Positions 4,486 through 63,668 are shown, numbered from the stretch's first letter. The stretch: 64,000 nucleotides of DNA from Chloroflexota bacterium (GCA_034422515.1 DAOUJP010000020.1:65590-129589); one strand, 5' to 3'. Translations and numbers: made by a program. Notes: generated by a model not told the origin, from the letters alone.

Positions 4486-4650
4486 CCCCCTATGGTCCCC
4501 CGTTCCGACGGGGGGACGGCCGTGGCGCACCTCTCTACGGCACAGCTGCCGCCGTATTCCCGACCCCGTCAGGACAGCACATTCCCTCCCCCGTCGGGAC
4601 GGGGGAGGGCTAGGGAGGGGGCCAGCCCTCCCCACCGGCCCCCTATAGGT
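4486..4650. repeat. Composite GC-rich palindromic REP/MITE-like element, copy A (unit 1 CCCCCTATGGTCCCCCGTTCCGACGGGGGGACGG; unit 2 CCCTCCCCCGTCGGGACGGGGGAGGGCTAGGG)
   Basis: Near-identical units recur at 6373-6545. Unit 2 is a perfect 12-bp inverted repeat (CCCTCCCCCGTC/GACGGGGGAGGG). Strictly intergenic. Confidence 0.8.
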
Positions 4651-4658
4651 CCCGCCGC

Positions 4659-5106
4659 CTAGGCGGCGGCCCGGTGGTCACGGCGGGAGGCGGTGCGGTC
4701 GGGAACCGGGTATTGGACGATCACCGCGTATTGGGCGGGAGCCGCCGGTGTGGCGTGCTCGACGTTGCGGAGGGCAGCCAGCGCCACCAAACTCCAGCCG
4801 AGAACAGCGCCAATGGCGACAATCGCCAGGGCAATGCCTTCCAGCGCAAAGCTCCCCAGCGGCGAGAACGGCATGTCGGCGCTGCCCCACGTCATGGCCT
4901 GCCGGGCCAGGTAGGACACGCTCCACACACCGAGCGCTAACCCCAAGCGGCGCGGCCAGCTCACCACTCGCGCCTTGGTAGTAGTAGCGGGTGCCACTAC
5001 CGACACCGCAGGTAGCGCCGCCGGCAGTGCAGTGCTCTCGTCGCTATAGCGCACCGGAGGCAGCCCCGCCCCGCGTCGCCCGTCCGCTGCTGCTGTCCAC
5101 TCTCGC
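4659..5106 (-). CDS. Hypothetical membrane protein
   Basis: Track ORF 4659..5300; one C-terminal hydrophobic TM segment. The start is uncertain; the Met at ~5106 (MREWTAAADG) is chosen arbitrarily. Confidence 0.3.
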
Positions 5107-5321
5107 ATCGTTGCCGCTCCTAGAACTTGTGGTCTATCGAACTCTCGAACTATAGAACGCGCGTTCTCACGGTAGGTTGCGGCCGCGATGTGGGGAAGTC
5201 CCCACATATCAGCCCGGCACCGAGAGGGACGGCGTGCTATGCTGGCCTTGCCGCGTAACGAGCTACAATCGGCGAGCAACCTCGCAGTGAACCGCAGCAC
5301 ACGAGATGGGGAGAGCAGAGC

Positions 5322-6362
5322 ATGAGCGATGACGGTGATTCCAGAAAGGTGGATCCGAGCGGCCTGGAGCAGCTAGTAACCAAGCTGTTCAGCGCCGCTG
5401 GCGTCGGCGATGAGGACGCGCAGTTCATGGGACACGTGCTCACGGACGCCGACCTGCGCGGAGTTCACACGCACGGGACCCGGTTTGCGCCGCGCTACGT
5501 CGAGGGCCTGCGCGCCGGCGGCATGAAGGCGCAGCCCAATCGCCGGCTCGTGGTGGATGCCGGCGCGGTCGGCGTGTACGACGGCGACGGCGGCTTGGGC
5601 CACGTCGCGGCCGCTGAAGCCATGGAAATTGCCATTCGCAAGGCCAAGGAGCACGGGATGGGCAGTGTGGGCGTCCGGCACAACGGACACTGCGGCGCCA
5701 TCGCCTACTACGCCCAAATGGCCGTGGATGCCGGCTGTCTGGCGTTCGCTGCCACGACGGGAGGCACCGCTATCGCCCCGGTCGGCGGTATCGAGGCGCG
5801 CTGCGGTCTCAACCCGATCTCGTGGGCCGCACCGACGCGCCGCGGCTGGGCGTTCAACTTGGACATGGCGCCGTCGGTCGTCGCCGGCTCCAAGGTGGAT
5901 ATGGTCCGGCAACGCGGCGAGCGTCTGCCCTGGGGCTGGGCCATTGACGCCAAGGGCGAGCCGACGGATGATCCCATCGCTGCGCGGGAGGGGGGTACCT
6001 TGCTGCCCATCGGCGGTTACAAGGGTGTCGGGCTGTCAATGGCGACCGAAATCCTGTGCGGTGTCTTCTCCGGTGGCCAACTCGGAGCAACCGGCCGCGG
6101 CTCAGGACACCTATTCCAGGCGATTGACATCGAGCGTGTCATGCCGCTCGACGAGTTCACCGAGCGGATGGAGCGGATGATCGAGGACGTGAAAAGCTCG
6201 GCGCTGGCGCCAGGATCATCCGGCATCACGCTCCCCGGCGAGCTGGAGTGGCAGAAGCGGCAGGAGCACCTAGCCAACGGCATCCCCCTCGACCGGCCCA
6301 CCCGGCACGGCCTGCGCGAGGCAGCCGATGAGGCCGGTGCTCCCTACGACATCGAGCTATAG
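5322..6362 (+). CDS. Ldh_2 family (malate/L-lactate/L-sulfolactate dehydrogenase-like) NAD(P)-dependent oxidoreductase
   Basis: HTHGTRFAPRYVEGLRAGG...GHVAAAEAMEIAIRKAKEHGMGSVGVRHNGHCGAIAYYAQMA is characteristic of the Ldh_2 fold. Confidence 0.7.
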   Translation: MSDDGDSRKVDPSGLEQLVTKLFSAAGVGDEDAQFMGHVLTDADLRGVHTHGTRFAPRYVEGLRAGGMKAQPNRRLVVDAGAVGVYDGDGGLGHVAAAEAMEIAIRKAKEHGMGSVGVRHNGHCGAIAYYAQMAVDAGCLAFAATTGGTAIAPVGGIEARCGLNPISWAAPTRRGWAFNLDMAPSVVAGSKVDMVRQRGERLPWGWAIDAKGEPTDDPIAAREGGTLLPIGGYKGVGLSMATEILCGVFSGGQLGATGRGSGHLFQAIDIERVMPLDEFTERMERMIEDVKSSALAPGSSGITLPGELEWQKRQEHLANGIPLDRPTRHGLREAADEAGAPYDIEL

Positions 6363-6372
6363 TCGCACCGGC

Positions 6373-6545
6373 CCCCCTATGGTCCCCCCGTCCCGACGGG
6401 GGGACGGGGAGGGCGGCGCACGGCCATGGCTGGCGCGGACCATATCCCCTCCCCCGTCGCCAGGGCTGAGGGCCAAGCAGGCGGCGCAGTCTATCCCCTC
6501 CCCCGTCGGGACGGGGGAGGGCTAGGGTGGGGGCCGGCCCCTCAC
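6373..6545. repeat. Composite GC-rich palindromic REP/MITE-like element, copy B
   Basis: CCCCCCTATGGTCCCCCCGTCCCGACGGGGGGACGG at 6373-6408 and CCCCTCCCCCGTCGGGACGGGGGAGGGCTAGGGTGGGGGCCGGCCC at 6494-6540, matching copy A. Confidence 0.8.
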
Positions 6546-6581
6546 ACCCCTGCGCCGCACCACCCGGTACAATGGCCGGTC

Positions 6582-7529
6582 GTGACTCCTTCCTCTCGGC
6601 GGCCTCTGGTCAAGGCTCAGGCCGCTCCGACGCAGCATCGTCCGCTCACCGCCCCGGCAGCCCTCTTTGCGCTCTTGCTCGCCATCCTGTGGAGTGGCCT
6701 GCCCATCGCCACCAAGGTCGGTCTCGACTACGCCCCGCCCTTGCGCTTGAGCGCGATGCGGTTCATCGTCGGCGGGGTCGTGGTCTTCTGCTGGGCACTG
6801 CTCACCAAGACGGACTTGCGCCTCCGTCCCGGCGAGTGGAAGGCCCTCGCCATCCTCGGCGTCCTGTTCTCCGTACAGATCGCCTTTCTCAATATCGGCC
6901 TCGATCTGACTACCGCCGGGCACAATGTCGTCTTGACCGTTACCTTTCCGATCTGGGTCGCCGTCCTGGCCCACTTCTTTGTACCTGGTGATCGACTCAC
7001 CGTGCCGAAGCTCCTCGGTGTGTTCATCGCCTACGGCGGGATGGTGCTGCTGTTCGCCGACAGCCTCGGGATGCATGCGACGGCGCTCCTCGGCGATGTC
7101 TTCTCGGCGATCTCCGGTTTCTTGCTCGGCGTGCGCCACGTCTACAACGCGCGTATGGTACAGAACCTGCATCCGGCCAAATTGCTGCTGGCGCAGGCTG
7201 TCTGCGGTACTGTGTCGCTCTTGACGGCAAGCCTGCTCTTCGAACCTGTGTCCGTCCGGTGGACGGCCCAGTTGGCGACCTCGGTGTTCTATCAAGGGGT
7301 GGTAGTCGCCGGCTTCTGCTTCATTGGTAGCCTGTGGCTGCTCAAGCGCTACTTTCCTTCGCAGGTGAGCGTCATCTCGCTGGCCCAGCCGCTCTTCAGC
7401 ATCATCGCGGCCTGGATCATCCTGGGCGAGCCGTTAAGCTCGACGCTCTGGCTGAGTGCCGCGCTGGTGATAGCGGGCGCCTGGCTAGTCCGGCAGCGCC
7501 CCCGGCGGGCCAGCACCCCCCCCGCTTGA
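6582..7529 (+). CDS. EamA/DMT-superfamily transporter (10 TM)
   Basis: Two EamA-like hydrophobic repeats. The track ORF starts at 6426, but the N-terminal ~50 aa there translate the REP element. The in-frame GTG at 6582 sits just after a TACAAT -10-like hexamer, suggesting a leaderless mRNA. Confidence 0.55.
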   Translation: MTPSSRRPLVKAQAAPTQHRPLTAPAALFALLLAILWSGLPIATKVGLDYAPPLRLSAMRFIVGGVVVFCWALLTKTDLRLRPGEWKALAILGVLFSVQIAFLNIGLDLTTAGHNVVLTVTFPIWVAVLAHFFVPGDRLTVPKLLGVFIAYGGMVLLFADSLGMHATALLGDVFSAISGFLLGVRHVYNARMVQNLHPAKLLLAQAVCGTVSLLTASLLFEPVSVRWTAQLATSVFYQGVVVAGFCFIGSLWLLKRYFPSQVSVISLAQPLFSIIAAWIILGEPLSSTLWLSAALVIAGAWLVRQRPRRASTPPA

Positions 7530-7636
7530 CAACTTCTGCATTTCTGCGGCGTCTCGGATACGAATTGGTATAACGTAACCGCCTGGTCCATATCGTCGAA
7601 GCATAGCTACACCGCCCCGTCCGATGGAGAACCGTC

Positions 7637-8017
7637 ATGCGCTGCACCGTAGACGATACGTTACTCGCCGAGGCTCAGAAAATCCTGCACACCGACAGCG
7701 CCGAAGAGACGGTTGCGGCCAGCCTGCGAGAAACCATCCGCAGCCGCGCCGAGCCGATGGAGCTACCGCTGTACCTGAGCAGCGATGAGAATTTCGAGCG
7801 ATTTCGCCGCGCGCTCCACCACCCACGCACACCGGCAGAGCTAGAGCGCCGCCGTGAGGCCATAGAGGCAGCGGACCGACTGCGGGCGGAGTTAGGTCCG
7901 GACCCGGATTTTAACACGGTGGATACCATCCGTGACATCCGTGGAGGCTGGGCTGACGATGAACCCGACGGGCAGACGAAGCCATCGGCCGGCAGCCGGT
8001 CTTCCCCGGCCGCTTGA
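7637..8017 (+). CDS. Type II antitoxin-like protein with an N-terminal VapB/DUF2191-type domain (MRCTVDDTLLAEAQKIL...) and a C-terminal extension
   Basis: The N-terminal ~40 aa match the 'MRTTLDIDDDLLAEA' antitoxin signature. No intact toxin gene follows. This is the last core-like gene before the low-GC noncoding stretch. Confidence 0.45.
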   Translation: MRCTVDDTLLAEAQKILHTDSAEETVAASLRETIRSRAEPMELPLYLSSDENFERFRRALHHPRTPAELERRREAIEAADRLRAELGPDPDFNTVDTIRDIRGGWADDEPDGQTKPSAGSRSSPAA

Positions 8018-8089
8018 CATTCGCACTGAGTCCCCGCATACTAGCCGGGAGGCGCTGTCATGGCTTCGCGTCGTGAGGTGGTTCAGCAA

Positions 8090-8118
8090 GGGTTGGAAAA
8101 CCAACCCTTTTCTTTTTT
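8090..8118 (+). terminator. Rho-independent terminator (GGGTTGG-AAAA-CCAACCC followed by TTTTCTTTTTT)
   Basis: Perfect stem with a tetraloop followed by a T-rich tract. This is unusual in such a GC-rich genome and lies in the lower-GC junction region. Confidence 0.6.
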
Positions 8119-8718
8119 GGATCCACCACCGCACGATCTACCAAACTGGACAAAATCCAGAACCTTTATGCTGCGTTTCAAGCTGACGGGACAGAATCGG
8201 TAGTCTGGCCGTCTCAATCTCTCCTGCTCTTGCCGCTCCATTCCTGCCAGGCTGACGCCTTCACGCTGGACCTCAAGGGAAATCTCACAGGACCTCATGT
8301 GAGTTAGTCATAGCACTGCGGCCGTAAGTCTGCTCGTGACACTACCACTCCACGGTCGTCGGCAGGCCGCGTTCTTGCGACTCCCGGCCCCGTCGACATC
8401 GCTAGGTAGAACGAACGGGCCGCAAACTCGCCTGTAGCAGCCCTGGCTGGCTCGGAGTATCATAATGGTGGAGTGGGAAGCGACACCAGCGTGTCCCCTT
8501 CGTCCCTTGGTCTGGGTTCGTCACGTGTGTGGCTGGATACAGCAACCGGATTCGAGCCGCTTTCGGCCCAGTTGTCCCAAGTGCATCGGTTCGGGAAACT
8601 CTCATAGGGGCCTCACGGCCAAAGGCCGCCGCCGCGAAATCGGGGGCAGTTCAGTTGGCATGGCAGACCGTATGCCACTGCCGATGAGGTAGGGACTGTC
8701 ATGGCGGCGTGCGGCTGT

Positions 8719-8733
8719 GATTTCCGGTCTGTC
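8719..8733 (+). promoter_or_regulatory. Conserved 15-nt motif GATTTCCGGTCTGTC (copy 1), ~70 nt upstream of the sigma-factor operon, followed at +30 by GAGAGTTGG
   Basis: Exact 15-mer repeated at 13692-13706 with the same downstream G(A/G)GTTGG box at +30/+31. Both copies are intergenic and precede an operon start. Confidence 0.5.
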
Positions 8734-34376: not shown

Positions 34377-34889
34377 CTAGCTGGGCAGCAGCCCCTGCTC
34401 CCGCAGGCTCACGGCGCGGTCGCCACCGATCACGATGTGGTCGAGCAGCGCGATGTCCAGGAGCTGCGCGGCGGCCATCAACTCCTTGGTGACGGCGACG
34501 TCCGCCGGGCTGGGCGTGGGATCCCCCGAGGGATGGTTGTGGACGACGATGAGGCCCGGGGCGGCCGCGACGATGGCCGGGCGGAACACCTCGGCGGCGC
34601 GGATGCGCGCCGCGTCGACGGTGCCCTGGTAGATCACCCGTTGACCCACCACGCGGTGCTTGGTGTTGAGCAGCAGCACGCGCAGCTGCTCCTGCACCAG
34701 TGGCGCCAACTCCGGCCCCACCAGTTGCTGCACGTCGGCGGGGCCGGAGATCGTGGGCCAGTCGGCGGGCGCACCAGGGGGCTGGGTGTCGACCTCGTAG
34801 CGCAGGGCCAGTTCGCCCAGCACCTGCAGGTTTTGGCGCAGGGCCGCCAGCAGGGAGGCGGTGGGTGGTTCGTAGGTGGTCGTGGTCAT
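34377..34889 (-). CDS. RadC-like JAB-domain protein
   Basis: The HNHPSGDPTPSPAD (JAMM-like HNHPSG) motif defines the RadC/DUF2466 family, common in phage and ICE modules. Confidence 0.6.
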   Translation of the reverse strand: MTTTTYEPPTASLLAALRQNLQVLGELALRYEVDTQPPGAPADWPTISGPADVQQLVGPELAPLVQEQLRVLLLNTKHRVVGQRVIYQGTVDAARIRAAEVFRPAIVAAAPGLIVVHNHPSGDPTPSPADVAVTKELMAAAQLLDIALLDHIVIGGDRAVSLREQGLLPS

Positions 34890-34996
34890 CGCACGCTCCT
34901 TTCAGACGGTGTGGGGGAAAACGAAAGCGGGGCCGCCCCCCGGCAGTGGGAGGCGGCCCCGCGTGGTGGGCAGCTACGACGATCCCGGGGCTGCGG

Positions 34997-35755
34997 TTAC
35001 GGTCCTGGCTCACTCCTTTCAGCCGGACTGACCGGCGCTAGTTTCTGAGCGGCGCCTTCGACCAAGGGCAGCAACTTGGCGGCGGGCACGGCGTCCAGGT
35101 CCTGGCCCAGCCGTTGGCGCACGGCCGTGCGGACCTGCGCGGCGGCGAAGCCCTGTTGGGCGCCCAGGGCCAGCAGCGTCTGGCGCAGTGGCGCGGCCCA
35201 GGTGTCGGTGCCGCCGTTCCCGCCATCACCGGCGAGGTCGTTGCCGAACTGCGCCCCCAGCGTGCGCAGCGCCCGCTTCAATGCGTCGGTCACGGCGCCC
35301 TTGTAGGCCGTCTCGTGGCCCTGGGCGCTCTCCTCGGCCACCACCCGGAAGCCCACGTCGGTGCGCGGGGGCATGCCCGGCACGTGCAGCCGGACGGTGG
35401 CGGTGTAGGCCGTGGTGTGCGCGACGGCGCCGGTCTGGGCGTCGCGGGTGGTGATGTCCCGCGGGGTGACCGCGCCGACGAGGTCATAGCCCCAGCCGCC
35501 GTAGCCGAGCAGGCGGTTGGCCTGCTGGATGGCGACCCGTCCGGGGAGATAGGGGAAGGTGTGCCCGGCGCGACCCTTCCGTTGCGCGACGAGGCTGGGG
35601 TCCAAGGGCGCGTCCAGTTGCTGGGCGACGGCGGGAGCCAGACCGGTCCACTGGCGGTCGGGCGCCAGATCACCGACGGGTTCCGTCCTCGCCAGGGGCG
35701 CGGATGCGGCGGGGATACCATTGCTGCGTTCGTTGCTGCGGGTGACGTTGGACAT
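34997..35755 (-). CDS. Rad52/Rad22-family single-strand annealing protein (phage recombinase)
   Basis: FPYLPGRVAIQQANRLLGYGGWGYDL...RDITTRD...AYKGAVTDALKRALRTLGAQFGNDL matches the Rad52_Rad22 N-terminal annealing domain. Confidence 0.6.
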   Translation of the reverse strand: MSNVTRSNERSNGIPAASAPLARTEPVGDLAPDRQWTGLAPAVAQQLDAPLDPSLVAQRKGRAGHTFPYLPGRVAIQQANRLLGYGGWGYDLVGAVTPRDITTRDAQTGAVAHTTAYTATVRLHVPGMPPRTDVGFRVVAEESAQGHETAYKGAVTDALKRALRTLGAQFGNDLAGDGGNGGTDTWAAPLRQTLLALGAQQGFAAAQVRTAVRQRLGQDLDAVPAAKLLPLVEGAAQKLAPVSPAERSEPGP

Positions 35756-35993
35756 CGGATACTCCTTCCTTCCTTGCTGCGTTGTCGGTTCTCGGTGGAC
35801 AGCGGCGTGCTGGGGCGCGCGGCAGTACGGAGGGACAGCGGGCCGTCAACCGGGGGGGCCGGGCGACGGAGGGTAGGAACCGGCTGGGGATAGCCGGTGC
35901 GCGCGGCGCTGGGACGCGGGAGCGTCAGTCGTGCGCAGCGGTGCCACTGAGGGAAGCGGCCCGGTGGCAGCGTGGCCAGCGGGGGATCGCCGG

Positions 35994-37052
35994 CTACCGC
36001 GGCCGTTGTGCGGTGGCCAGCCGGCGCCGGAACACCGCGCGACCATCCGGCCGGGTGGCCAGGTCGGCCACATCGCTGACCCCTGGCGGGAGGGTGATGG
36101 TGGTAGCCCGCTGCCCCAGCAGTTCGGTGAGCCGCGCCGCGGCTGCCCGACCCGCGGCGTCGGCGTCGAAGGCCAGCACCACGCGGGGGCAGGTGCGCAG
36201 GGCGGCGGCGACCCGGTCCAGGCCCTGGGTGCCCAGCACCGCAGCCGCCGGCAGGCCCCATTCCACCAGCGTGAGCCAGTCGAACAGCCCCTCGGTCAGC
36301 ACCACCCGCGGCGGCGCCGCACCCAGGCGTCCCAGGCCCAGCAGTGGCTTCGGGCCGGGCAGCGTCTGGAAGCGGGGGATGCGTTCCGGCGCGATGGCCC
36401 GCCCCGCCAGCCACCGCACCTGGCGGTCACGCACTGCCGGCACCACCACCATGCCGGCGAACCGCTCGGCACCCCGCCCGACGAACAGTCCCGATGCCCG
36501 CTGCTGCGCCGCGTCGAAGCCGGCAGCAGTCAGGGCGCCACGCAGCCCGCGCCCTGGGGCATAGCCCAGCCCCAGGCGCCTAGCCGTTGCGGGGCTGATG
36601 CCGCGGCTCGCCAGGTATGCCCGCCCTTGGGGGTACCGCCACAGCGCCCGGTGATAGCAGCGGGCCGCCGCCGTCAGCAGCGCCGGGTCGCGCGGGGGCC
36701 GGGCGGTGGCGTGGGGCCGACTGCGGGTGGCTAGGGCCGGGGGCCGCGCGTGTGCTGGTGTGGCCAGGCCCGCCCCGCCGTCGAGGCGCCGGATGGCTTG
36801 GGGCAGGGTCAGGCCTTCCACGCGCTGTACGAAGTCCAGCACGTCGCCGCTGGCGCCACAGCCGAAGCAGTGGAAGCGGGCGGTGTCGCCGTACACCGTG
36901 AAGCTGCCCTCGGTCTCGTCGTGGAAGGGACACCGGCCCTGGCGGACGCGGCCTTGGCCCCGCAGTTGCACGCCGGCCGCCAGGACCACGTCGGCCAGCG
37001 GGTGCCGCTGCTTGAGCGCGGCGAGGTCTACGAACTGCTGGGCTACCACCAT
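35994..37052 (-). CDS. DnaG-like DNA primase (CHC2 zinc finger + Toprim)
   Basis: CPFHDETEGSFTVY...FHCFGCGASGD zinc finger, and Toprim (VVLTEGLFDWL...VVLAFDADAAG). Confidence 0.6.
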   Translation of the reverse strand: MVVAQQFVDLAALKQRHPLADVVLAAGVQLRGQGRVRQGRCPFHDETEGSFTVYGDTARFHCFGCGASGDVLDFVQRVEGLTLPQAIRRLDGGAGLATPAHARPPALATRSRPHATARPPRDPALLTAAARCYHRALWRYPQGRAYLASRGISPATARRLGLGYAPGRGLRGALTAAGFDAAQQRASGLFVGRGAERFAGMVVVPAVRDRQVRWLAGRAIAPERIPRFQTLPGPKPLLGLGRLGAAPPRVVLTEGLFDWLTLVEWGLPAAAVLGTQGLDRVAAALRTCPRVVLAFDADAAGRAAAARLTELLGQRATTITLPPGVSDVADLATRPDGRAVFRRRLATAQRPR

Positions 37053-39085: not shown

Positions 39086-39310
39086 ATGAAACGGACGACA
39101 AAGACCATCACCTTCTCGCTACCCCCGGCGATGGCGGCCCAGGTGCGGGCCGTGATGCGGGCGGAAGGCCGCACCATGAGCGACCTGGTGCGCGAAGCCC
39201 TGCGTCTCTACATGGAGGAGCGGGAATGGCGCCAGACCGTCCGCTACGAGCGGCTCCAAGCCCGTCGCGCCGCCGAGCAAGCTGACCCAGGAGGCAACCC
39301 CGATGCGTAA
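39086..39310 (+). CDS. Ribbon-helix-helix (CopG/ParD-like) DNA-binding protein
   Basis: 74 aa; KTITFSLPPAMAAQVRAVMRAEGRTMSDLVREALRLYMEE is a canonical RHH. Its stop overlaps the integrase start. Confidence 0.6.
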   Translation: MKRTTKTITFSLPPAMAAQVRAVMRAEGRTMSDLVREALRLYMEEREWRQTVRYERLQARRAAEQADPGGNPDA

Positions 39311-40889
39311 CCAACCGGACCCCACCCCGGCGGCCCTGTATGCCCGCGTGTCCAGCGACCGCCAGGACGTGGACCTCTCCGTGGCGGCCCAACTGCGGGC
39401 CCTGCGGAACTACGCTGCCCAGCATGGCTATGTCGTGGTCCGCGAATACGTGGACGAAGCGGAGAGCGGGCGCGTCGCCGACCGGCCGGAGTTCCGCAAG
39501 CTGCTCGAGGCTGGTGGCCGTCCCCAAGCGCCCTTCCAGGTCATTCTCGTCTGGAAGTTCTCCCGTTTCACCCGCAAGCGTGAGCATGCGGTCGCTTTCA
39601 AGGCCATGCTGCGGCACCGGGGCATCAAGGTGGTCTCCATCACGGAGCACGCCGACGACTCGCCCACCGGGCGGCTGATGGAAGCCATCATCGAGAGCGT
39701 GGACGAGTTCTACTCCGAGAACCTGGCCCAGGAGGTCACGCGCGGGATGCGCGAGGCCGCGGCCCGGGGGTATTTCCTGGGGCCGCGGCCGCCGTTCGGC
39801 TATCGGCGGGTCAAGGTCCGCGACGGGGCGAAGGAACGGCCGACCTTGGTGGTGGACCCGGCCACTGCGCCAGTGGTGCGGGAGCTGTATGCGCAGTCGT
39901 TGCGCGGCCACGGCTTGAAGGAGCTGTGCCGGGACTTGAACGACCGCGGCATCACTAATCGCGGGAAGCGCTGGCGGCGGAATGCGCTGCACTACCTGCT
40001 GACCAACGAAGCCTATACCGGCACCGCCGTCTGGGGGCGGACCACCAAGGGCACCCAGGCGCCGGACCCGGTGCGGGTCCCGGACGCCTGGCCGGCGCTG
40101 GTGACGCGGCAGCTGTTCGAGCAGGTGCAGCAGGCGTTGAAGGAGCGCGCGCCGGCGATGCAGCGGCCCGGCCGGGTGGGCAGCACGTTCCTGTTGAGCG
40201 GGCTGCTGCGCTGCGGGGTGTGTGGCAAGGCTTACGTCGGCCAGGGGGCGAAGAGCGGCCGGTTCGCCTACTATGTCTGTGGCACGTTGCAGCGGGAGGG
40301 TGCCGGCACTTGCACCGCCCGCTACCTGAACGCGCCGAAGGTCGAGGCCTTCGTGGTAGACACGATCAAGGGGCGCATCCTGAACGACGCGACGATCACC
40401 GAGTTGGTGCTGCTGGTGGCGGAGGAGATTGACGCGGTGGCCGGCGAGGTGGCCGGCCGGCTGGAGACGATTGCAGCGGAACTAGCAGACGTCAGCAGCC
40501 GGCTGGAGCGGCTCTACGAGGCCTTGGAGACCAGTGCGTTGACCCTGGAAGCGCTGTCGCCGCGCATCCTGGCGCTGCGGCACCGGCAGGATCAGTTGGG
40601 CGCGGCGCGGGAGGCGGCCGAGCACCAGTTGGCCCAGCGGAAGGTGGAGCTGCCCGGCACGACGGAGATCAAGGGATACGTGGCGGACTTCCGGGCGTTG
40701 TTGCAGCGGGGCACGTTCCCGGAGCGGAAGGCGCTGCTGCGCAACTTCGTGCAGGGGATCGAGGTGGTGGACGACGCGGCGACGCTGACGTACACGGTGC
40801 CCATGCCGGCGGACGGCATGACCAGGGAGGGGGTGCCGGTTCTTGATTTTGTCCAGTCCGGCCTATCGCTACGGGACCGGAGCACATGA
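39303..40889 (+). CDS. Large serine recombinase (integrase)
   Basis: N-terminal resolvase catalytic domain (ALYARVSSDRQDVDLSVAAQ... with the nucleophilic Ser), a recombinase domain, a Cys-rich zinc ribbon (CGVCGK...YVCG) and a C-terminal coiled coil, 528 aa. Confidence 0.8.
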   Translation: MRNQPDPTPAALYARVSSDRQDVDLSVAAQLRALRNYAAQHGYVVVREYVDEAESGRVADRPEFRKLLEAGGRPQAPFQVILVWKFSRFTRKREHAVAFKAMLRHRGIKVVSITEHADDSPTGRLMEAIIESVDEFYSENLAQEVTRGMREAAARGYFLGPRPPFGYRRVKVRDGAKERPTLVVDPATAPVVRELYAQSLRGHGLKELCRDLNDRGITNRGKRWRRNALHYLLTNEAYTGTAVWGRTTKGTQAPDPVRVPDAWPALVTRQLFEQVQQALKERAPAMQRPGRVGSTFLLSGLLRCGVCGKAYVGQGAKSGRFAYYVCGTLQREGAGTCTARYLNAPKVEAFVVDTIKGRILNDATITELVLLVAEEIDAVAGEVAGRLETIAAELADVSSRLERLYEALETSALTLEALSPRILALRHRQDQLGAAREAAEHQLAQRKVELPGTTEIKGYVADFRALLQRGTFPERKALLRNFVQGIEVVDDAATLTYTVPMPADGMTREGVPVLDFVQSGLSLRDRST

Positions 40890-40951: not shown

Positions 40952-41080
40952 GGTTCTGAGACCTCAGCTCAATATCTGTCCGGAGCCGAGCAAGTAGGCG
41001 CGACGTTCATCACTGCCGATAGACGCCTTTACCAGCGCATTGAGCAACTGACCTATGTGCGCTGGCTGGGCGAAGTGTGA
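40952..41080 (+). pseudogene. 3'-terminal remnant (43 codons) of a PIN-domain (VapC-like) gene at the element junction
   Basis: In-frame GSETSAQYLSGAEQVGATFITADRRLYQRIEQLTYVRWLGEV* resembles a PIN C-terminus (xTLITADrrL). It has no start codon and an upstream in-frame stop at 40949, and begins 62 nt after the integrase stop. Confidence 0.4.
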
Positions 41081-41107: not shown

Positions 41108-43930
41108 ATGAAGCGGCTTATCACGTATGCTATCGGCCAGAAAGTGCAGACAAGGCGTGCGATGAACGTGAATGTCACTGTTGATGGTCGGCAGGTCGCG
41201 GTGGCAGAGACGGCCACCGTCCTCGACGCGGTGTGCGCGGCCGGCATCGAAATACCGCATCTCTGCAAAGATGCCGACCAGCCGCCTATCGGCGCGTGCC
41301 GGACCTGCTTAGTCGAGGTGGAGGGCGGACGCGGCTTTCCGGCCTCGTGCCATACACCAGTGCTTGACGAGATGATTGTCCGCACACGCGGCGCGGCGCT
41401 CGAACGCATCCGCAACGGTGTCCTGGCGCTTACGCGGGCGATGCAGCCGGCAGATGTGGCTGCGCCGGCCGGCGGAGTGGGGAAGGAATTCGGCGATACA
41501 CTTGATCTCTTCCGGCTGGCCGAGCCGCTCGACGGCCTGACGCCCAAGCCCCGGCCGGACGTGGACGACAGCAACCCCATCTTCCAGTTGAACCACGAAG
41601 CCTGCATCATGTGCGGGCGCTGCACCACGGCCTGCGAGGATATTCAGCACATCGGCGCTATCTCCATCGCCGGCACGGCCGAGCAGACTCACATTGCCCC
41701 TTTCATGGATCAAGAACTGATTGAATCGATCTGCACGACGTGCGGTCAGTGCGTCTCGGTCTGTCCCACCGGGGCGCTCCACCCCAAGCCTGTGCTGGGC
41801 CACGATCCGGTAGTGGCCCGCGAGGTCAAGAGCGTGTGCGCCTACTGCGGCGTCGGGTGCGGTATCACGATGCAGGTGGACGAGCATGACCGCCTCATCA
41901 ATGTGCTCGACGATCCCGCCAACCGGTCCAGCCAGGGGATGCTGTGTGTGAAAGGGCGTTTCGGTCTCACCTTCATCCAACACGAGGACCGCCTGACCAC
42001 GCCGCTGATCCGCAAGAACGGTGTACTCACCGAGGCGTCCTGGGATGAGGCACTGGACTTGGTAGCGGAGAAATTTGCCGAGTACCGCGGCTCGTTCGGA
42101 TCGCTGGCCTCGGCCAAGGCCACCAACGAAGACGGCTACGTGCAGCAGAAGCTCGTTCGCCTCCTGATGGGCACCAATAACATTGACCACTGCACGCGGC
42201 TCTGCCACTCCCCCTCGGTCGAGGCGATGATCGCGCAGCTCGGCAGCGGGGCAACGAGCAATTCTTATGCCGACTACCGCAACGCCGGCTGCCTGATGGT
42301 CGTCGGCAGTGATACCGGTTCCAACCATCCGGTGATTGCCTCGCAGCTCCGCCAGGCCATTGACGAGCGCGGCGCCAAGTTGATTGTGATCAATCCGAAG
42401 CGCATTGAACTCTGTAACTACACCGACCTCTGGCTGCGGCCCAACCCCGGCACCGACGTGGCGCTATTCAACGGCCTCGCGCGCGCGGTGCTCGACGCGG
42501 GACTGGCCGACGAGGAGTTCATCCGCGAGCGGACGGAGGGTTTCGCGGCGCTGGAAGCGACCTTAGCGGACTACAGTCCCGCGGTGGTCGAGCAGATTAC
42601 CGGTGTTCCCGCCGCGGACATCCGCCGCGCGGCGGCATTGTTCGCGCAACCGCCGTTTGGCGGCTCCTGCCTGATCTGGGGCATGGGCATCACCCAGCAT
42701 ACGAATGGCACCGACAATGCCTCGGCGTTGCTCAACCTGGCCCTCGTCACCGGCCAGATCGGGAAGCCGGCCACCGGCGTCTCGCCGCTCCGCGGTCAGA
42801 ACAACGTCCAGGGCTGCGGCGACGCGGGCTGCATTCCCGATAAGCTGCCCGGCTATCAGAACCTGACCGCCGACACGCGGGAGCCATTCGAGCGGCGCTG
42901 GGCAGGGCCGCTGCCCAGCGAGGAAGGTCTCGTCGTCACCGACATGATGGCGGCCGCAGCGCAGGGTGCCCTCGCCTGTATGTACATCACCGGCGAGAAC
43001 CCGTTACTCAGCGAGCCGTACCTGGCACACGCGCAGCAGGCACTGTCGAACCTGAAATTTCTCGTGGTGCAGGACATCTTTCCCCACGAGACCTCCGAGT
43101 TGGCCGACGTGGTGCTCCCGGCCACTTCCTTTGCCGAGAAAGAAGGCACGTTTACCAACAGCGAACGACGGGTACAGCGGGTACGGCCAGCCATTTCGCC
43201 CGTCGGCGAGAGCCGGTCCGACTGGTGGATCGTCTGCGAGATCGGCAAACGACTGGCGCGGCGGCTGGGCAGGGATCCGGGGCAGTTCGAGTACACCGGT
43301 CCGGCAGCCATCTTCGACGAACTGGCTGCGCTCACCCCGTTCATGGGCGGTTTGTCACATGAGCGGTTGGACCGCGAGGGCGGTATCCAATGGCCCTGCC
43401 CAACACCGGATCATCCCGGCACGCCGCAGCTTTACACGGACTCCTTCCCGGTAGGCAAAGCCAAGTTCGTGCCCGTGATCCAAGGCCCGCCGGCGGCCGA
43501 GCTACCCTCGCGGCGGTTTCCGCTCATCCTCAACACCGGGCGCGTTCTTTACCACTGGCACGGTGGGACCATCACTCGCCGGGCCGAGGGACTACTAGCG
43601 CGGGCGCCCTACCTGGAGGTCGCCATCAATCCCGATGATGCCCAAGCCGCCGGCCTGAGCGACGGCGATGACGTGCGCGTCGTCTCGCGGCGCGGCGAGC
43701 TAGACGGCAAGGCGCTGGTCAGCGAGACCGTGCAGCGCGGTGAGGTCTTTGTTCCATTTGTCAAGCTGCAAGAATCGGCGGCCAACTTCCTCACCAACGC
43801 CGTTTTCGATCCGAAGTCGAAGATTCCCGAATACAAGGTCTGCGCCGTGCGGCTCGAAAACCCCGCGGCCCCCGCGCGCTGGCGTCGCGGCCGCCGGCGC
43901 ATGGGCCTGCCGGTCGGCACGCGCCGATAA
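41108..43930 (+). CDS. Formate dehydrogenase alpha subunit / molybdopterin oxidoreductase with N-terminal 2Fe-2S and 4Fe-4S domains (FdhA/FdsA-like)
   Basis: 2Fe-2S ferredoxin (CRTCLVEV), 4Fe-4S (CIMCGRCTTAC; CTTCGQCVSVCP) and MopB (CAYCGVGCG) domains. The start may be at 41162 (MNVNV). Confidence 0.75.
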   Translation: MKRLITYAIGQKVQTRRAMNVNVTVDGRQVAVAETATVLDAVCAAGIEIPHLCKDADQPPIGACRTCLVEVEGGRGFPASCHTPVLDEMIVRTRGAALERIRNGVLALTRAMQPADVAAPAGGVGKEFGDTLDLFRLAEPLDGLTPKPRPDVDDSNPIFQLNHEACIMCGRCTTACEDIQHIGAISIAGTAEQTHIAPFMDQELIESICTTCGQCVSVCPTGALHPKPVLGHDPVVAREVKSVCAYCGVGCGITMQVDEHDRLINVLDDPANRSSQGMLCVKGRFGLTFIQHEDRLTTPLIRKNGVLTEASWDEALDLVAEKFAEYRGSFGSLASAKATNEDGYVQQKLVRLLMGTNNIDHCTRLCHSPSVEAMIAQLGSGATSNSYADYRNAGCLMVVGSDTGSNHPVIASQLRQAIDERGAKLIVINPKRIELCNYTDLWLRPNPGTDVALFNGLARAVLDAGLADEEFIRERTEGFAALEATLADYSPAVVEQITGVPAADIRRAAALFAQPPFGGSCLIWGMGITQHTNGTDNASALLNLALVTGQIGKPATGVSPLRGQNNVQGCGDAGCIPDKLPGYQNLTADTREPFERRWAGPLPSEEGLVVTDMMAAAAQGALACMYITGENPLLSEPYLAHAQQALSNLKFLVVQDIFPHETSELADVVLPATSFAEKEGTFTNSERRVQRVRPAISPVGESRSDWWIVCEIGKRLARRLGRDPGQFEYTGPAAIFDELAALTPFMGGLSHERLDREGGIQWPCPTPDHPGTPQLYTDSFPVGKAKFVPVIQGPPAAELPSRRFPLILNTGRVLYHWHGGTITRRAEGLLARAPYLEVAINPDDAQAAGLSDGDDVRVVSRRGELDGKALVSETVQRGEVFVPFVKLQESAANFLTNAVFDPKSKIPEYKVCAVRLENPAAPARWRRGRRRMGLPVGTRR

Positions 43931-45580: not shown

Positions 45581-45653
45581 GGCGTTTTCCTTTAGCTTCC
45601 TCCGGGCACGAGTAGGTCTGCGTGATGCGGGCCTCGCCTGGCCCCCCACCCTG

Positions 45654-45700
45654 ACCCTCCCCCGCAGTGGCGGGAGGGGCCATAGGGGGGGCGGCCCTCG
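45654..45700. repeat. REP-like palindromic element, inverted copy (CCCTCCCCCGCAGTGGCGGGAGGGGCCATAGGGGGGGCGGCCC)
   Basis: Same CCCTCCCCCG/CGGGGGAGGG hairpin and CCATAGGGGG unit as the copies at 4.5 and 6.4 kb. Lies between the RR stop and the HK start. Confidence 0.7.
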
Positions 45701-54473: not shown

Positions 54474-54476
54474 ACC

Positions 54477-58838: not shown

Positions 58839-58921
58839 GGAGGGATGGCTGAGCGGCCGAAAGCGGCGGTCTTGAAAACCGTTGGTCGAAAGACCCGGGG
58901 GTTCGAATCCCTCTCCCTCCG
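58839..58921 (+). tRNA. tRNA-Ser (anticodon TGA), long variable arm
   Basis: Acceptor GGAGGGA/TCCCTCC, anticodon loop CTTGAAA, extra arm GGTCGAAAGACC, T-loop GGTTCGAATCC. The ends are approximate. Confidence 0.7.
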
Positions 58922-58959
58922 CCGGAAGCCTAAGCCGGACTTGCCAGGCAGCAGTCTAT

Positions 58960-59050
58960 GGAAGGGTCGCATAGTTGGCCTAGTGCGGCGGTTTGCTAAA
59001 CCGCTACAGGGGAAACCCTGTCGTGGGTTCGAATCCCACCCCTTCCGCCA
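58960..59050 (+). tRNA. tRNA-Ser (anticodon GCT) with encoded CCA
   Basis: Acceptor GGAAGGG/CCCTTCC, anticodon stem GCGGT/ACCGC with loop TTGCTAA, long variable arm, T-loop GGTTCGAATCC, 3' GCCA. Confidence 0.75.
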
Positions 59051-60410: not shown

Positions 60411-60561
60411 ATGTGAGCGAGTCGGTTGCAGTGAGTATCAGTGAGCAGGTAATAAGCCGGTCCGCTACCGATGCACCGATTGCCCGTTACGGAACTGAGC
60501 AGCGCCGTTGCCCCGGCGGGCAGCGCGTCGCTGCCGCGATGCACCGAGGGGATAACGGGAG

Positions 60562-61512: not shown

Positions 61513-61570
61513 GCGACCTCACCTCAACCTTGTTTCACGGAGAGAGCACGCCCACATCCAGGTGCCGGTG

Positions 61571-62428
61571 CTAACTCGCCATGCTGCGTGGGCTGTGTCG
61601 CTCCGCGAACGTCACAGGCAAGGCGGCCAGTCGCGCACGCATGACCCGCACGGCCTCGGCGTTGTTGTCAATGAGGATGAAGGAGCGGCCGAGTTGGGCT
61701 GCGGCGATGCCGGTTGTGCCGCTGCCGGCGAAGAAGTCCAGCACCACGTCGCCAGGGTGCGAGGAGGCGCGGATAATCCGTTCCAGGATGCCGAGCGGCT
61801 TCTGTGTTGGGTAGCCGGTCTTCTCCTTGCCGTTCGGGCTGACAATCGTGTGCCACCACGTATCGGTGGGCAGTTTGCCGCGCGCCGCCTTCTCCGGCCC
61901 GACCAGCCCCGGTGCCATGTAGGGGATGCGGTCAATGTCGTCTACGTTGAAGGTGTAGCAGCCGGGGTCCTTGACGTAGAACAGGATGTTGTCGTGCTTG
62001 GCCGGCCATTTCTTGCGCGTGCGGGCGCCGTAGTCGTAGGCCCAGATGATCTCGTTCAGGAAGCACGCGCGCCCGAAGATGTCATCGAGCAGTACTTTGC
62101 AGTAGTGGACTTCGCGGTAGTCAATGTGGAAGTAGAGCGAGCCGGTCGGTGTGAGCACACGATAGGCCTCGACCAAGCGCGGGTGTAGAAAGGCGAGGTA
62201 GTCGTCGAACCGGTCGGCAAAGGACTTGGTGCCGAGTGTGGTCGTCTCGTAGCGCCGGCCCTGAAAACCCGTGCGGTCGCCGGTCTCGCTACGCACGGTC
62301 TTGAGTTGGGTACGGGTCTGCGTGGTGCCGGTGTTGAAGGGCGGGTCAATATAGATCAGGTCTACGGACTCGCTCGGCAGCGTTTCGAGAATCGGCAGGT
62401 TGTCGCCGTAGTAGATCGTGTTGGGCAT
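61571..62428 (-). CDS. Beta-class N4/N6 DNA methyltransferase, orphan (no adjacent restriction enzyme)
   Basis: DPPF motif near the N-terminus (LIYIDPPFNTG) and a C-terminal SAM-binding FFAGSGTTGIAA, the permuted motif order of beta-class MTases. Confidence 0.65.
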   Translation of the reverse strand: MPNTIYYGDNLPILETLPSESVDLIYIDPPFNTGTTQTRTQLKTVRSETGDRTGFQGRRYETTTLGTKSFADRFDDYLAFLHPRLVEAYRVLTPTGSLYFHIDYREVHYCKVLLDDIFGRACFLNEIIWAYDYGARTRKKWPAKHDNILFYVKDPGCYTFNVDDIDRIPYMAPGLVGPEKAARGKLPTDTWWHTIVSPNGKEKTGYPTQKPLGILERIIRASSHPGDVVLDFFAGSGTTGIAAAQLGRSFILIDNNAEAVRVMRARLAALPVTFAERHSPRSMAS

Positions 62429-62637
62429 GGAACGTCCCTCATTGATGGAGGCCAGGATAGTCAGGATAGTCAGGGCAGCCCGGTCGCCACGCTGGCGGTA
62501 GTGTACCGCGCCCGGCAGCCGCAGCGCCGGACACCGCGGTTGCCGGCGCTAAATTGCGCTGACTCCTTGACCGACTGCGCCGACCGCGCTACAGTCTGGC
62601 AGGCACGGAGCGACAAACAGCAGAGGAGCGGTACACA

Positions 62638-63597
62638 ATGAGCGATTCCGGTCGTCCGGCGTATCTCTGGCTTGACGGTGAGCTAATGCCCTGGGAGCAG
62701 GCGACGGTGCATGTCAGTATCCTGGGCTGGTCCACGATGGGCGGTGTGTTCGAGGGCATCAAGGCGTACTGGAATGCCGACCACGAGCAACTCTACGGCT
62801 GGCAGTTTTTGGAGCATTTCGAGCGGCTCGACGACTCCATGAAGATGCAGCGCATGTCGGTGCCGTACAGTCCGCAGGACTTGGCGGCGGCGGCCGTGGA
62901 CGTGTTGCAGGCCAACAACCATCGTGGTGATGCCTACGTGCGTCCGCTGGCCTACCATGCCGACGCCGATTGGTTCGGCACGCTGGAGGATAGTAGCACC
63001 AGCGTGCTGATTTGGACCAAGCCGTTCGATACCGTCTTGGGCACTGGGACCGTGGTCAAGGCCGGGGTTAGCTCGTGGACGCGCGTCTCGGATAACTCGC
63101 TCTCGCCGCGGATCAAGTGCATCTCCAACTACCAGAACAGCCGCATCGCGCTGATCGAGGCCAACCGGCACGGCTACGACCAGCCGATCTTGCTCAATGC
63201 CGACGGGAAGGTCACGGAGGGACCGGCCTCCTGCCTATTTATTGTCCGCGACGGCGTGGCGATTACGCCGAGCACGACGAGCGGTATTCTGGAGAGCATC
63301 ACCCGCCGCACGCTCTTGCACCTCTGCGAGGAAGAGTTGGGCATCCCGGTGGCCGAGCGCGAGGTGGACCGCACCGAGCTGTATATCGCAGATGAGGTGT
63401 TCTACTGCGGAACGGGCGCGGAGATAACACCCGTCGGCTCGGTTGACGGCTACCGGATCGGTGACGGCGGGATTGGCTCCATCACCACCCGGATCGAGCA
63501 CCTGTTCCACGACCTCGTGCGCGGTCGCCATGCGCGCTCGGCGGAGTGGTGTACCCCGATCTATAGCACGGCGCCGGTCAGCGCAGCCGCCGGCTGA
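62638..63597 (+). CDS. Class IV (branched-chain/D-amino-acid) aminotransferase
   Basis: LWLDGELMPWEQATVHV...GVFEGIKAY and the fold-type IV PLP pattern. Confidence 0.6.
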   Translation: MSDSGRPAYLWLDGELMPWEQATVHVSILGWSTMGGVFEGIKAYWNADHEQLYGWQFLEHFERLDDSMKMQRMSVPYSPQDLAAAAVDVLQANNHRGDAYVRPLAYHADADWFGTLEDSSTSVLIWTKPFDTVLGTGTVVKAGVSSWTRVSDNSLSPRIKCISNYQNSRIALIEANRHGYDQPILLNADGKVTEGPASCLFIVRDGVAITPSTTSGILESITRRTLLHLCEEELGIPVAEREVDRTELYIADEVFYCGTGAEITPVGSVDGYRIGDGGIGSITTRIEHLFHDLVRGRHARSAEWCTPIYSTAPVSAAAG

Positions 63598-63640
63598 CGG
63601 TGCTGCCGAACGTTCGGCCCCGGCTTGGCCCCCACCCGCA

Positions 63641-63668
63641 CCCTCCCCCGTTGCGACAGGGGAGGGAG
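63641..63668. repeat. REP-like hairpin (CCCTCCCCCGTTGCGACAGGGGAGGGAG)
   Basis: Same CCCTCCCC/GGGGAGGG arms as the other copies, immediately 3' of the aminotransferase gene. Confidence 0.6.

Follow-up and report, generated by a model that had tools for sequence, protein, structure and literature searches.

G/C-rich intergenic repeats of a Chloroflexota genome: a probable family of intrastrand-triplex motifs of the BoxC/PIT/TMECO kind

Introduction

In a 64,000-nucleotide stretch of DNA from a Chloroflexota bacterium (hereafter the window, with positions counted from its first letter), short G/C-rich palindromic repeats lie between the genes. To which class of repeats do they belong, and does their distribution separate host from acquired DNA? 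An earlier note called them palindromic and REP/MITE-like; the palindrome is real, but the third, mirror segment that defines the units had been missed, and assignment to the REP class is unlikely, that to MITEs not tenable. We argue below that they probably belong to a lineage-specific family whose members are class II (pyrimidine-purine-purine) intrastrand triplex motifs rich in G/C, of the same kind as BoxC/PIT/TMECO of Escherichia coli.

Repeat units and their sites

About eight units of one G/C-rich repeat family occupy four intergenic sites of the window (about 4482–4658, 6370–6537, 45639–45697 and 63625–63669), and the sequences are indeed present where the earlier note had placed its copies. 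Three extra sites of the family are found on the same scaffold within 10 kb outside the window, at -1177..-1143, 68045–68116 and 68714–68797 in window coordinates. Two subtypes can be distinguished, with the consensus C3TC5 / G5AG3 / G3WG5 for type B and TC6 / G6A / AG6, with a CCAT loop, for type A. The features of the window are as follows.

4482–4519, minus strand: type A unit, minus-strand reading GTCCCCCC-G tcggaa C-GGGGGA ccat AGGGGGG (C-rich arm, G-rich arm, mirror segment); structural scan, and nhmmer type A profile E=1.4e-9.
4581–4625, plus strand: type B unit, CCCTCCCCC-G tcggga C-GGGGGAGGG cta GGGAGGGGG cc; structural scan, and nhmmer with the type B profile at E=9e-13; DNA folding energy of the hairpin, -14.3 kcal/mol.
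4626–4658, no strand given: degenerate fragment (CCCTCCCCAC..GGCCCCCTATAGGTCCC) seen in the sequence, with a weak nhmmer match (E about 2); it adjoins a hairpin containing the stop codon of the upstream gene (4659).
6370–6407, minus strand: type A unit, mismatch-free in hairpin and mirror segment (TCCCCCC / GGGGGGA / ccat / AGGGGGG); structural scan, and nhmmer E=9e-9.
6443–6475, plus strand: degenerate type B hairpin CCCTCCCCCGTCGCCAGGGCTGAGGG; nhmmer E=0.03; weak fold, -5.4 kcal/mol.
6492–6537, plus strand: type B unit, CCCTCCCCC-G tcggga C-GGGGGAGGG cta GGGTGGGGG cc; structural scan and nhmmer.
About 7942–40972, no strand given: defence and recombination island of 33 kb, inserted in a vapBC module; empty sites in relatives and Pfam matches.
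45639–45697, no strand given: fused unit, both strands of which carry a mirror segment; nhmmer E=2e-8 for type B and E=4e-4 for type A.
63625–63669, minus strand: lone type B unit, minus-strand reading CCCTCCCCT gtcgcaac GGGGGAGGG tgc GGGTGGGGG; structural scan, and nhmmer E=7e-13; it starts 28 nt past the stop codon of an aminotransferase gene.

The fused unit is an imperfect hairpin with a C-rich mirror on its left (type B, minus reading, 45639–45684) and a G-rich mirror on its right (type A, plus reading, 45656–45691). The two subtypes pair as inverted A+B composites, and the family is partly composite, as had been claimed; the arrangement is identical and outward in all seven pairs, taken from the window, the scaffold flank and two further loci (L001 and L025). 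The units at 6370–6407 and 6492–6537 make up such a composite of about 180 nt, which the closest relative lacks.

That these repeats are a genuine family, distinguishable from generic G/C runs, is borne out by shuffle controls: CCCTCCCCCG occurs 7 times against 0.61 expected, and the hairpin CCCTCCCC-N-GGGGAGGG 3 times against 0. A structural scan for a C-rich arm, a G-rich arm and a mirror G-rich segment returned 6 motifs, all at the claimed repeat sites, versus 0.055 in 200 dinucleotide shuffles, and the nhmmer profiles of the family reach E-values as low as 1e-13. The word CCCCCTATGGTCCCC has two exact copies. At 65% G+C, the genome might produce such runs by chance without any family existing, and the loose search with this 15-mer, which at 3 mismatches gave no enrichment (6 versus 3.2 expected), could be read that way; but the exact arms, hairpins, three-segment motifs and profile matches above make this reading virtually impossible, and the shuffles had already refuted it.

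Position relative to genes and turnover among relatives

All seven sites are intergenic, as the earlier note stated, and begin 5–29 nt past a stop codon. They were also said to lie between convergent or tandem genes; only the second term applies, since the flanking genes are co-directional at each of the seven sites and convergent at none. The units show no strand bias (5 plus, 7 minus). The repeats also affect gene calling, and the suspicion that the N-termini of the EamA and histidine-kinase ORFs were artefactually extended through them was well founded: the EamA ORF, starting at 6426, reads through a repeat block missing from relatives, and the called start of the histidine kinase is 45580 instead of 45706; the site 45639–45697 lies between the start at 45580 and the response-regulator stop (45722).

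Comparison across relatives, which the earlier note had suggested, was informative. In relatives of 86–92% nucleotide identity the repeats are absent, or swapped for another repeat, at three of three comparable sites, which indicates a quick turnover. For example, one relative (L128) has a 7-nt stretch instead of the 182-nt block at window 6367–6548. Where relatives offer an empty allele, at two sites, no target-site duplication can be seen.

A mirror segment that covaries with the hairpin

Each unit is built on a single strand: a short loop separates a C-rich arm from its G-rich complement, and after another loop of 3–4 nt comes a further G-rich segment, the mirror image of the G-rich arm, in which A or T faces the A of that arm. 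Units of the window depart by 0–1 mismatch from this antiparallel mirror rule (G opposite G, A/T opposite A). Six strict motifs of the window have the layout of a class II G/C-rich intrastrand triplex motif as defined for ITxF, i.e. a pyrimidine stem, a complementary purine stem and a second purine stem on one strand; the ITxF definition takes stems of 6–15 nt and loops of 1–6 nt, whereas the first loop reaches 8 nt here.

The arms are shared with other genomes: their hairpin was matched in at least 120 contigs from genomes of many phyla and in at least 120 viral ones from IMG/VR, and plasmids of Azospirillum and Rhizobium carry it too. The design of hairpin plus mirror segment is likewise present in viral contigs and in at least seven phyla. 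Contigs were gathered by the fixed hairpin sequence alone, a sampling neither random nor phylogenetically independent; among the matches listed, from more than 200 genome and viral contigs, the hairpins are flanked by G-runs in the order (3–4)-W-(5–6), mirroring the 5-A-3 of the arm, in about 190 cases, and by the direct order 5-W-3 in none. Of the matches listed, 187 have T or A as the interrupting base and 3 have C. In 2.7 Mb of fetched DNA, 29 cases are mirror-only and 5 direct-only. Moreover, other asymmetric stems carry matching mirrors (GGGGGAAGG with GGATGGGGG, GGGGGGAGG with GGAGGGGGG, GGGGGAGAG with GAGAGGGGG, GGAGAGGGG with GGGGAGAGG), which shows covariation between stem variants and mirror segments. 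A mirror repeat is not accounted for by Watson-Crick pairing, and we know of no protein-recognition mode that needs one. Since every unit has a third segment mirroring its G-rich arm, we place the family with BoxC/PIT/TMECO and not with RAYT-type REPs or MITEs defined by TIRs and TSDs.

Likeness to BoxC/PIT/TMECO

BoxC/PIT/TMECO elements are known from E. coli and other Proteobacteria (Holder et al. 2015, with earlier work of Hoyne and Maher cited there; PMC4666352). CD and NMR show that the E. coli motif, of the same three-segment design, folds into a stable triplex that melts at 70–82 °C; the motif is always intergenic, shows no strand bias, occurs in heterotypic inverted pairs and marks hypervariable loci (PMC4666352). 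The repeats described here are probably a Chloroflexota version of these known bacterial intrastrand-triplex repeats. Both have three segments on one strand, with the second G-rich segment able to pair antiparallel via G·G and A/T·A triads, stems of about 9 nt, and a pyrimidine-rich second loop of 3 nt (TTA, CCG or CTA). Both are strictly intergenic on unbiased strands, with two subtypes in inverted heterotypic pairs, at loci that differ among close relatives; the counts here are 7/7 sites intergenic, 5 plus and 7 minus units, 7/7 pairs of A with B, and 3/3 sites variable.

On the other hand, the two families differ in several respects. The TMECO consensus is CCCTCNCCC N3-6 GGGNGAGGG N3 GGGNGAGGG, and this exact pattern does not occur in the window, where the third stems are GGGWGGGGG (B) or AGGGGGG (A) and the first loop is 8 nt when counted TMECO's way. 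Only one copy comes close to the consensus, at 68045–68076, outside the window, and its second loop has 2 nt. The first loop of the Chloroflexota family measures 6–8 nt, its pairs face outward in 7/7 cases versus inward in 4/5 of the E. coli pairs, and its host is an uncultured Chloroflexota lineage. Its local density is also much higher, 7 sites in about 45 kb versus 23 units in 4.6 Mb. H-DNA mirror repeats share the homopurine mirror symmetry and the purine-motif triads, but the duplex here would come from a local one-strand hairpin, in a double fold-back, and not from a long homopurine-homopyrimidine mirror tract in duplex DNA.

By analogy with the E. coli relative, whose triplex is established in vitro, the Chloroflexota units may form triplexes as well. 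Whenever replication, repair or transcription leaves the DNA single-stranded, the hairpin would form; the mirror segment could then fold back, antiparallel to the purine arm, and pair with it in reverse-Hoogsteen G·G:C and A/T·A:T triads. For TMECO itself, in vivo DMS footprinting in E. coli revealed no protection (PMC4666352), so that stable triplexes in cells are unproven. We propose that the elements are non-coding structural repeats, probably selfish or neutral, which would pile up in the intergenic DNA a short way downstream of genes, in many cases as inverted pairs of A with B. They might make their sites structurally unstable, and this instability could lead to the fast gain, loss and exchange of the repeats between related genomes.

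Alternative explanations

REP, BIME and REPIN elements, mobilised by RAYTs, are likewise short, G/C-rich, intergenic, palindromic and multicopy, often in inverted doublets and often just past stop codons. The units could thus be hairpin substrates of a RAYT (a ssDNA tyrosine transposase), or of another IS-derived enzyme encoded elsewhere, with the inverted A+B composite as the mobile unit. The density of short intergenic hairpins (7 sites in about 45 kb of core DNA), the inverted doublets with reverse-complementary loops TCCCGA and TCGGGA, and the clean differences from a close relative, such as the 182-nt block versus 7 nt, would all fit. Nevertheless, the gene calls of the 78 kb examined include no Y1 transposase (Y1_Tnp). 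RAYT-type REPs are imperfect palindromes of 20–40 bp headed by a conserved tetranucleotide (GTAG/CGTC type); here the palindrome is present but the head is absent, the units starting with CCCT or GTCC. REPs, defined by a hairpin and an associated RAYT gene, also lack the mirror third segment, the conserved extra of the present units, and recognition of a hairpin leaves this segment and its covariation unexplained. In E. coli, Holder et al. (PMC4666352) found no link between TMECO and mobile elements. Altogether we consider mobilisation as REP-like hairpins unlikely. As for MITEs, the composites of 45–180 bp have mutually inverted ends (GGCCCCCC ... GGGGGGCC), their outer ends being C6 and G6; this candidate was rejected, as filled-versus-empty comparisons at the two empty-allele sites reveal no target-site duplication, and no parent insertion sequence is known.

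An extension of the intrastrand-triplex assignment should also be mentioned. Across many phyla and viruses, the hairpin with its mirror segment might be the recognised substrate of a mobilisation or copying process that acts on the triplex folded in single-stranded DNA, copying or inserting it, as a rule a short way downstream of genes; the outward A+B composite would be the active form in Chloroflexota. If the folded triplex is what gets copied or inserted, the conservation of the mirror geometry would follow. We regard this as a long shot; if true, triplex motifs would be pan-bacterial, structure-defined selfish DNA and not passive by-products.

A role at the RNA level, in which stable stem-loops of intercistronic or 3' untranslated RNA would end transcription or shield the upstream mRNA from exonucleases, is suggested by the position of the sites, 5–29 nt past a stop codon between co-directional genes, which suits an RNA 3'-end hairpin. 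The hairpins are stable (-9 to -15 kcal/mol as DNA), and the intergenic region 6363–6582 folds as RNA at -133 kcal/mol (z=-2.3). The earlier note had proposed folding to see whether the hairpins are terminator-like: they do fold, but an intrinsic terminator is rejected because no T-run follows any of them, and a terminator scan of 4000–8000 is blank at the repeats. Both orientations relative to transcription are used, and close relatives do without the units at the same sites. Rfam gives no match at E <=1 in 4300–6700, and over the window only two tRNAs at the gathering score. PIT elements have neither terminator nor promoter activity in E. coli, and RNA does not form purine-motif triplexes (PMC4666352). 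We thus hold a role in RNA to be quite improbable.

The four G-tracts formed by the G-rich arm and the third segment could also fold into a quadruplex competing with the hairpin. Kaplan et al. (2016, PMC5100583) proposed such a G-quadruplex-hairpin-duplex switch (HPG1/HPG2) for GGGAGAGGG-TTA-GGGTGAGGG in E. coli, the same sequence as BoxC read as a G-quadruplex. Type B, GGGGG-A-GGG-cta-GGG-W-GGGGG, likewise sets four G-tracts beside a complementary C-rich arm and follows the canonical motif (four G-tracts of at least 3, loops of 1–7 nt); type A (G6-A ccat A-G6) does not, having no four separated tracts of three. A quadruplex would leave type A units unexplained, as well as two regularities that it does not need: the mirror order (3-W-5 versus 5-W-3, about 190 to 0 among the matches listed) and the A/T at the interruption (187 versus 3, same matches). 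For TMECO, 18 imino signals in NMR indicate a triplex rather than a quadruplex (PMC4666352). The switch is therefore a very improbable account of the family, for which the intrastrand-triplex assignment is retained.

Repeats and the island

No copy of the family occurs at 7942–40972, in agreement with the claimed absence at 8–41 kb, by three independent scans: the fuzzy word search found none, the structural scan none (relaxed settings gave only 6–7-nt noise), and the best match of the two nhmmer subtype profiles in the island has E >5. Repeats are present in 7 of 39 intergenic regions of the core versus 0 of 17 in the island, a depletion with p of about 0.017 by intergenic base pairs and about 0.046 by the count of regions of at least 100 bp. 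The absence had been taken to support the foreign origin of the island; the absence itself stands, but as a sign of foreign DNA it is only weak, being nominally significant (p about 0.02–0.05). Nor are the repeats, in general, the convenient marker of host versus acquired DNA that had been proposed: with the hairpin in at least 120 genome and 120 viral contigs and on plasmids, such a marker is unreliable. The foreign origin is shown far more directly by the empty site in three relatives (L128, L131 and L134), which independently proves the island; a large serine recombinase gene lies inside it, at 39303–40889.

The repeats as a triplex-type family

The G/C-rich intergenic repeats of the window are best filed as a lineage-specific addition to the known G/C-rich intrastrand-triplex repeats. 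At the four stretches where an earlier note, made from the sequence alone, had placed them, the sequences are as it described. The arm CCCTCCCCCG is found seven times in the window against 0.61 expected from dinucleotide shuffles, and the hairpin CCCTCCCC-N(2-16)-GGGGAGGG three times with none expected. Two exact copies of the word CCCCCTATGGTCCCC are present in the window; with three mismatches allowed this 15-mer shows no enrichment there, so that the loose search was dropped as a criterion for the family. Profiles built from oriented units (nhmmer E-values as low as 1e-13) gave the refined coordinates.

Repeat units in the window
4482-4519, minus strand: type A unit (nhmmer profile)
4581-4625, plus strand: type B unit (nhmmer profile)
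4626-4658, no strand given: decayed fragment (nhmmer profile table)
6370-6407, minus strand: type A unit (nhmmer profile)
6443-6475, plus strand: decayed hairpin (nhmmer profile table)
6492-6537, plus strand: type B unit (nhmmer profile)
45639-45697, both strands: fused unit (nhmmer profile)
63625-63669, minus strand: type B unit (nhmmer profile)

The window belongs to a 1.02-Mb metagenome scaffold (ENA ERZ23495174 scaffold_4), of which about 14 kb of additional flank were covered; three further sites lie there, at window coordinates -1177..-1143, 68045-68116 and 68714-68797.

The label of plain palindrome does not fit these units, which also carry a third, mirror G-rich segment. Type A reads, on its own strand, TCCCCCC-G tcggga C-GGGGGGA ccat AGGGGGG, and type B CCCTCCCCC-G tcggga C-GGGGGAGGG cta GGG(A/T)GGGGG. 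In both, a hairpin made of a C-rich arm and its complementary G-rich arm is followed by a G-rich mirror of the first G-rich arm, and the A or T of the mirror segment stands opposite the A of that arm. A purpose-built scan was set to stems of 7–12 nt and tolerated a single mismatch in the hairpin and another in the third segment, whose G·G and A/T·A pairs were read antiparallel to the purine arm. It detects six motifs in the window, every one at a repeat site, whereas 200 dinucleotide shuffles yield 0.055. The motif is distinct from generic G/C runs.

Relation to known triplex motifs

The same architecture is that of a class II intrastrand triplex motif, the earlier BoxC or PIT element, which Holder et al. 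(2015, PMC4666352) named TMECO; they give it the consensus CCCTCNCCC N3-6 GGGNGAGGG N3 GGGNGAGGG and counted 3610 copies across 262 proteobacterial genomes. Escherichia coli MG1655 has 23 copies, all intergenic and without strand bias, among which five inverted pairs each associate both loop subtypes (PMC4666352). The TMECO triplex is stable by CD and NMR, DMS protection in vivo was absent, and the sequence around the motifs is more variable than at control sites (PMC4666352); as cited in the same paper, the Maher laboratory found no promoter or terminator activity for the E. coli elements. The same E. coli sequence has also been interpreted as a G-quadruplex-hairpin switch (Kaplan et al. 2016, PMC5100583).

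The A and B units of our family are also paired in inverted orientation, with mirror segments outward in seven pairs out of seven (the window contributes three, locus L025 two, and the flank and locus L001 one each), whereas four of the five E. coli pairs are inward. Since the partner loops, TCCCGA and TCGGGA, are reverse complements, the A and B partners are diverged inverted copies. L025 (OZ241866.1) and L001 belong to other Chloroflexota MAGs, and both subtypes are present in each; L025 reaches 7 units per 8 kb, being a locus chosen for its match to the family. Its own consensus, two subtypes and consistent outward pairing set the Chloroflexota family apart.

About 4 kb past the window end, at 68045-68076 on the plus strand (15409-15440 of L125, the locus spanning the window flank), lies CCCTCACCC ca CCCTCTCCC gcg GGGAGAGGG, which nearly matches the E. 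coli TMECO consensus and directly adjoins a type A unit; at least two triplex-motif families thus coexist in this genome. Some units also travel within longer composites, because a 65-nt block, made of the hairpin TTCCCGC..GCGGGAA and a type A unit, is shared with 86% identity by two non-orthologous sites in two relatives (68077-68141, and 1013-1075 of L375, a locus from a relative).

Conservation of the mirror rule across phyla

A hairpin-only scan of one genome per species matched at least 120 contigs, whose record titles, among the matches listed, name Pseudomonadota, Chloroflexota, Planctomycetota, Actinomycetota, Acidobacteriota, Gemmatimonadota, Saccharibacteria and others. GGG(T/A)GGGGG lies at most 6 nt from the hairpin, on one or both sides, for 88 of 137 hairpins in the genome contigs and 69 of 136 in viral contigs from IMG/VR (at least 120), both among the matches listed. 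In these two sets together, again among the matches listed, about 190 flanking segments have G-runs ordered (3-4)-W-(5-6) and none 5-W-3, with T or A as interrupting base in 187 and C in 3, counts to be read with the hairpin sequence fixed in the scans and with lineages that are not independent samples. Other asymmetric stems of the same contigs carry each its own mirror: GGATGGGGG for GGGGGAAGG, GGAGGGGGG for GGGGGGAGG, GAGAGGGGG for GGGGGAGAG and GGGGAGAGG for GGAGAGGGG. Considering distinct asymmetric hairpins other than the query in 2.7 Mb of DNA, 29 are mirror-only versus 5 direct-only.

A mirror repeat is not explicable by Watson-Crick pairing, and an antiparallel purine-motif triple helix requires one; we know of no mode of protein recognition that would require it. 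Compared across the contigs, mirror order, A/T rule and covarying variants argue that triplex geometry, rather than a mere hairpin or G-tracts, would be conserved across phyla. The hairpins were collected without regard to the third segment, which makes this argument independent; it says nothing on what the elements do.

Two other searches were set aside. The 220-nt composite gave by BLAST against plasmids only motif-level matches of 55-90 nt, which fall in intergenic stretches, free of annotation, of Azospirillum and Rhizobium replicons, so that homology of the composite was rejected in favor of motif spread only. The type A 17-mer GGGGGACCATAGGGGGG was left out of the statistics as not specific to the family: in a metagenome scan a TCCCCC arm lies at most 60 nt upstream in only 74 of 126 matches.

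Turnover among relatives

Homologues of two flanking proteins place the organism in the Chloroflexota and also led to orthologous contigs, the best named relative being a MAG labelled Dehalococcoidia bacterium (GCA_002688445.1). L128, a contig with 86-88% nucleotide identity, has 7 nt in place of the 182-nt composite 6367-6548 of the window, and an unrelated 110-nt spacer in place of the composite 4474-4657. In L131 (about 80% identity) the Ldh_2-EamA spacer contains a different triplex-type motif. In L375 (92% identity) a type A-like element, resembling the copy at 68.1 kb, replaces the type B unit of the post-aminotransferase spacer, at which synteny stops. Thus the repeats differ at all three comparable sites, in agreement with the instability reported for TMECO loci.

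Besides the architecture, covariation and turnover that we observe, we infer a triplex in cells: hairpin and triplex would fold back on transiently single-stranded DNA and would make the repeat-bearing intergenic sites unstable. Fold-back with the resulting instability is the most likely mode of action. The earlier note was sound in its observation and partly right in its interpretation. With this family the BoxC/PIT/TMECO kind reaches an uncultured lineage of Chloroflexota, in which its local density is high.

The 12-mer GAGAGGTGAGTG is found in both orthologous spacers of a close relative devoid of triplex repeats (L128 380-400 and, on a second contig, L129 2010-2030), and may be a separate small repeat family of that lineage.

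Position and tests for an RNA role

Each of the seven sites separates co-directional genes and starts 5-29 nt downstream of the upstream stop codon; of the proposed location "between convergent or tandem genes", only the second term is retained. Of the core intergenic regions that measure 100 bp or more, 16 of 23 are co-directional; seven sites out of seven in this class corresponds by our arithmetic to p ~0.047. Five units are on the plus strand and seven on the minus strand, irrespective of the direction of transcription. The hairpins are stable (-9 to -15 kcal/mol, folded as DNA) but without a following T-run, and the terminator scan gave no match at the repeats. Hairpin energy alone was rejected as a diagnostic, because shuffles of such G/C-rich sequence fold too (single-unit z-scores of only -1 to -2). 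Rfam returned only tRNAs at gathering score, and nothing else at E <= 1.

Absence of repeats from the island

Fuzzy word search, structural scan and nhmmer profiles all found zero copies in the island, as the earlier note had it. Repeats are borne by 7 of 39 core intergenic regions (5185 bp) versus 0 of 17 in the island (4092 bp). By our arithmetic this depletion reaches p ~0.017 when base pairs are counted and ~0.046 when regions of 100 bp or more are. The core-only distribution is suggestive but thin: for foreign origin, repeat absence is a weak auxiliary signal at best, and the comparison with empty sites in relatives decides. Nor can one rely on the motif as a mark of host DNA in general, since its kind is also found in viral contigs and plasmids.

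The island extends over about 7942-40972, because the alignment of L128 to the window stops at 7941 and restarts at 40973, and because the Fdh-like gene (41108-43930 in the window) immediately follows EamA at the empty site of L131 and L134, another relative's locus. It interrupts a vapBC module (7637-8017 and 40964-41077, junctions near 7942 and 40972) that retains VapB residues 1-102 and PIN residues 112-149; about 377 nt of L128 are absent from the window there. A large serine recombinase gene (39303-40889) occupies the right end.

The 9-mer ACATCCGTG, at 7935 and 40942, adjoins both junctions, with one other copy at 53758, and may be a recombination core. A 31-nt inverted repeat with 81% complementarity (8134-8164 / 40838-40868) lies just inside both ends, its right copy within the 3' end of the recombinase gene; these could be recombinase-binding half-sites. 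They were rejected as the island boundary, being inside it, ~190 and 105 nt away from where the relatives place the junctions. The cargo at 10270-33646 consists of stacked defence-type genes.

Island cargo
Within 10270-33646: M78 peptidase-UvrD-PD-(D/E)XK fusion
Within 10270-33646: BilA/BilB/BilD-like ubiquitin-like system genes
Within 10270-33646: SNF2 helicase with NOV_C domain
Within 10270-33646: Schlafen/AlbA_2 protein
Within 10270-33646: DUF1156 and DUF499 proteins, with a DUF433/DUF5615 pair between
Within 10270-33646: another helicase and a DUF6094 methyltransferase-like gene
34377-37052, after the defence-type cargo: RadC, Rad52 and primase genes

In core DNA, two tRNA-Ser genes (anticodons TGA and GCT) stand 36 nt apart at 58839-59050, with no integrase gene or repeat adjoining them.

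Effect on ORF calls

The repeats inflate ORF calls, as had been noticed from the sequence, and flag intergenic sites of fast turnover. EamA is called at 367 aa against 284-332 aa in relatives, and the histidine-kinase ORF is stretched through a repeat (587 aa versus 545 aa called). Upstream of EamA a TACAAT box is followed 8 nt on by an in-frame GTG (window 6568-6584; L128 ~2222-2240), an arrangement that L128 and L131 conserve along with the window. It would fit a promoter near the start codon of EamA, whose mRNA is possibly leaderless, and suggests a true start at or after 6582, not 6426.
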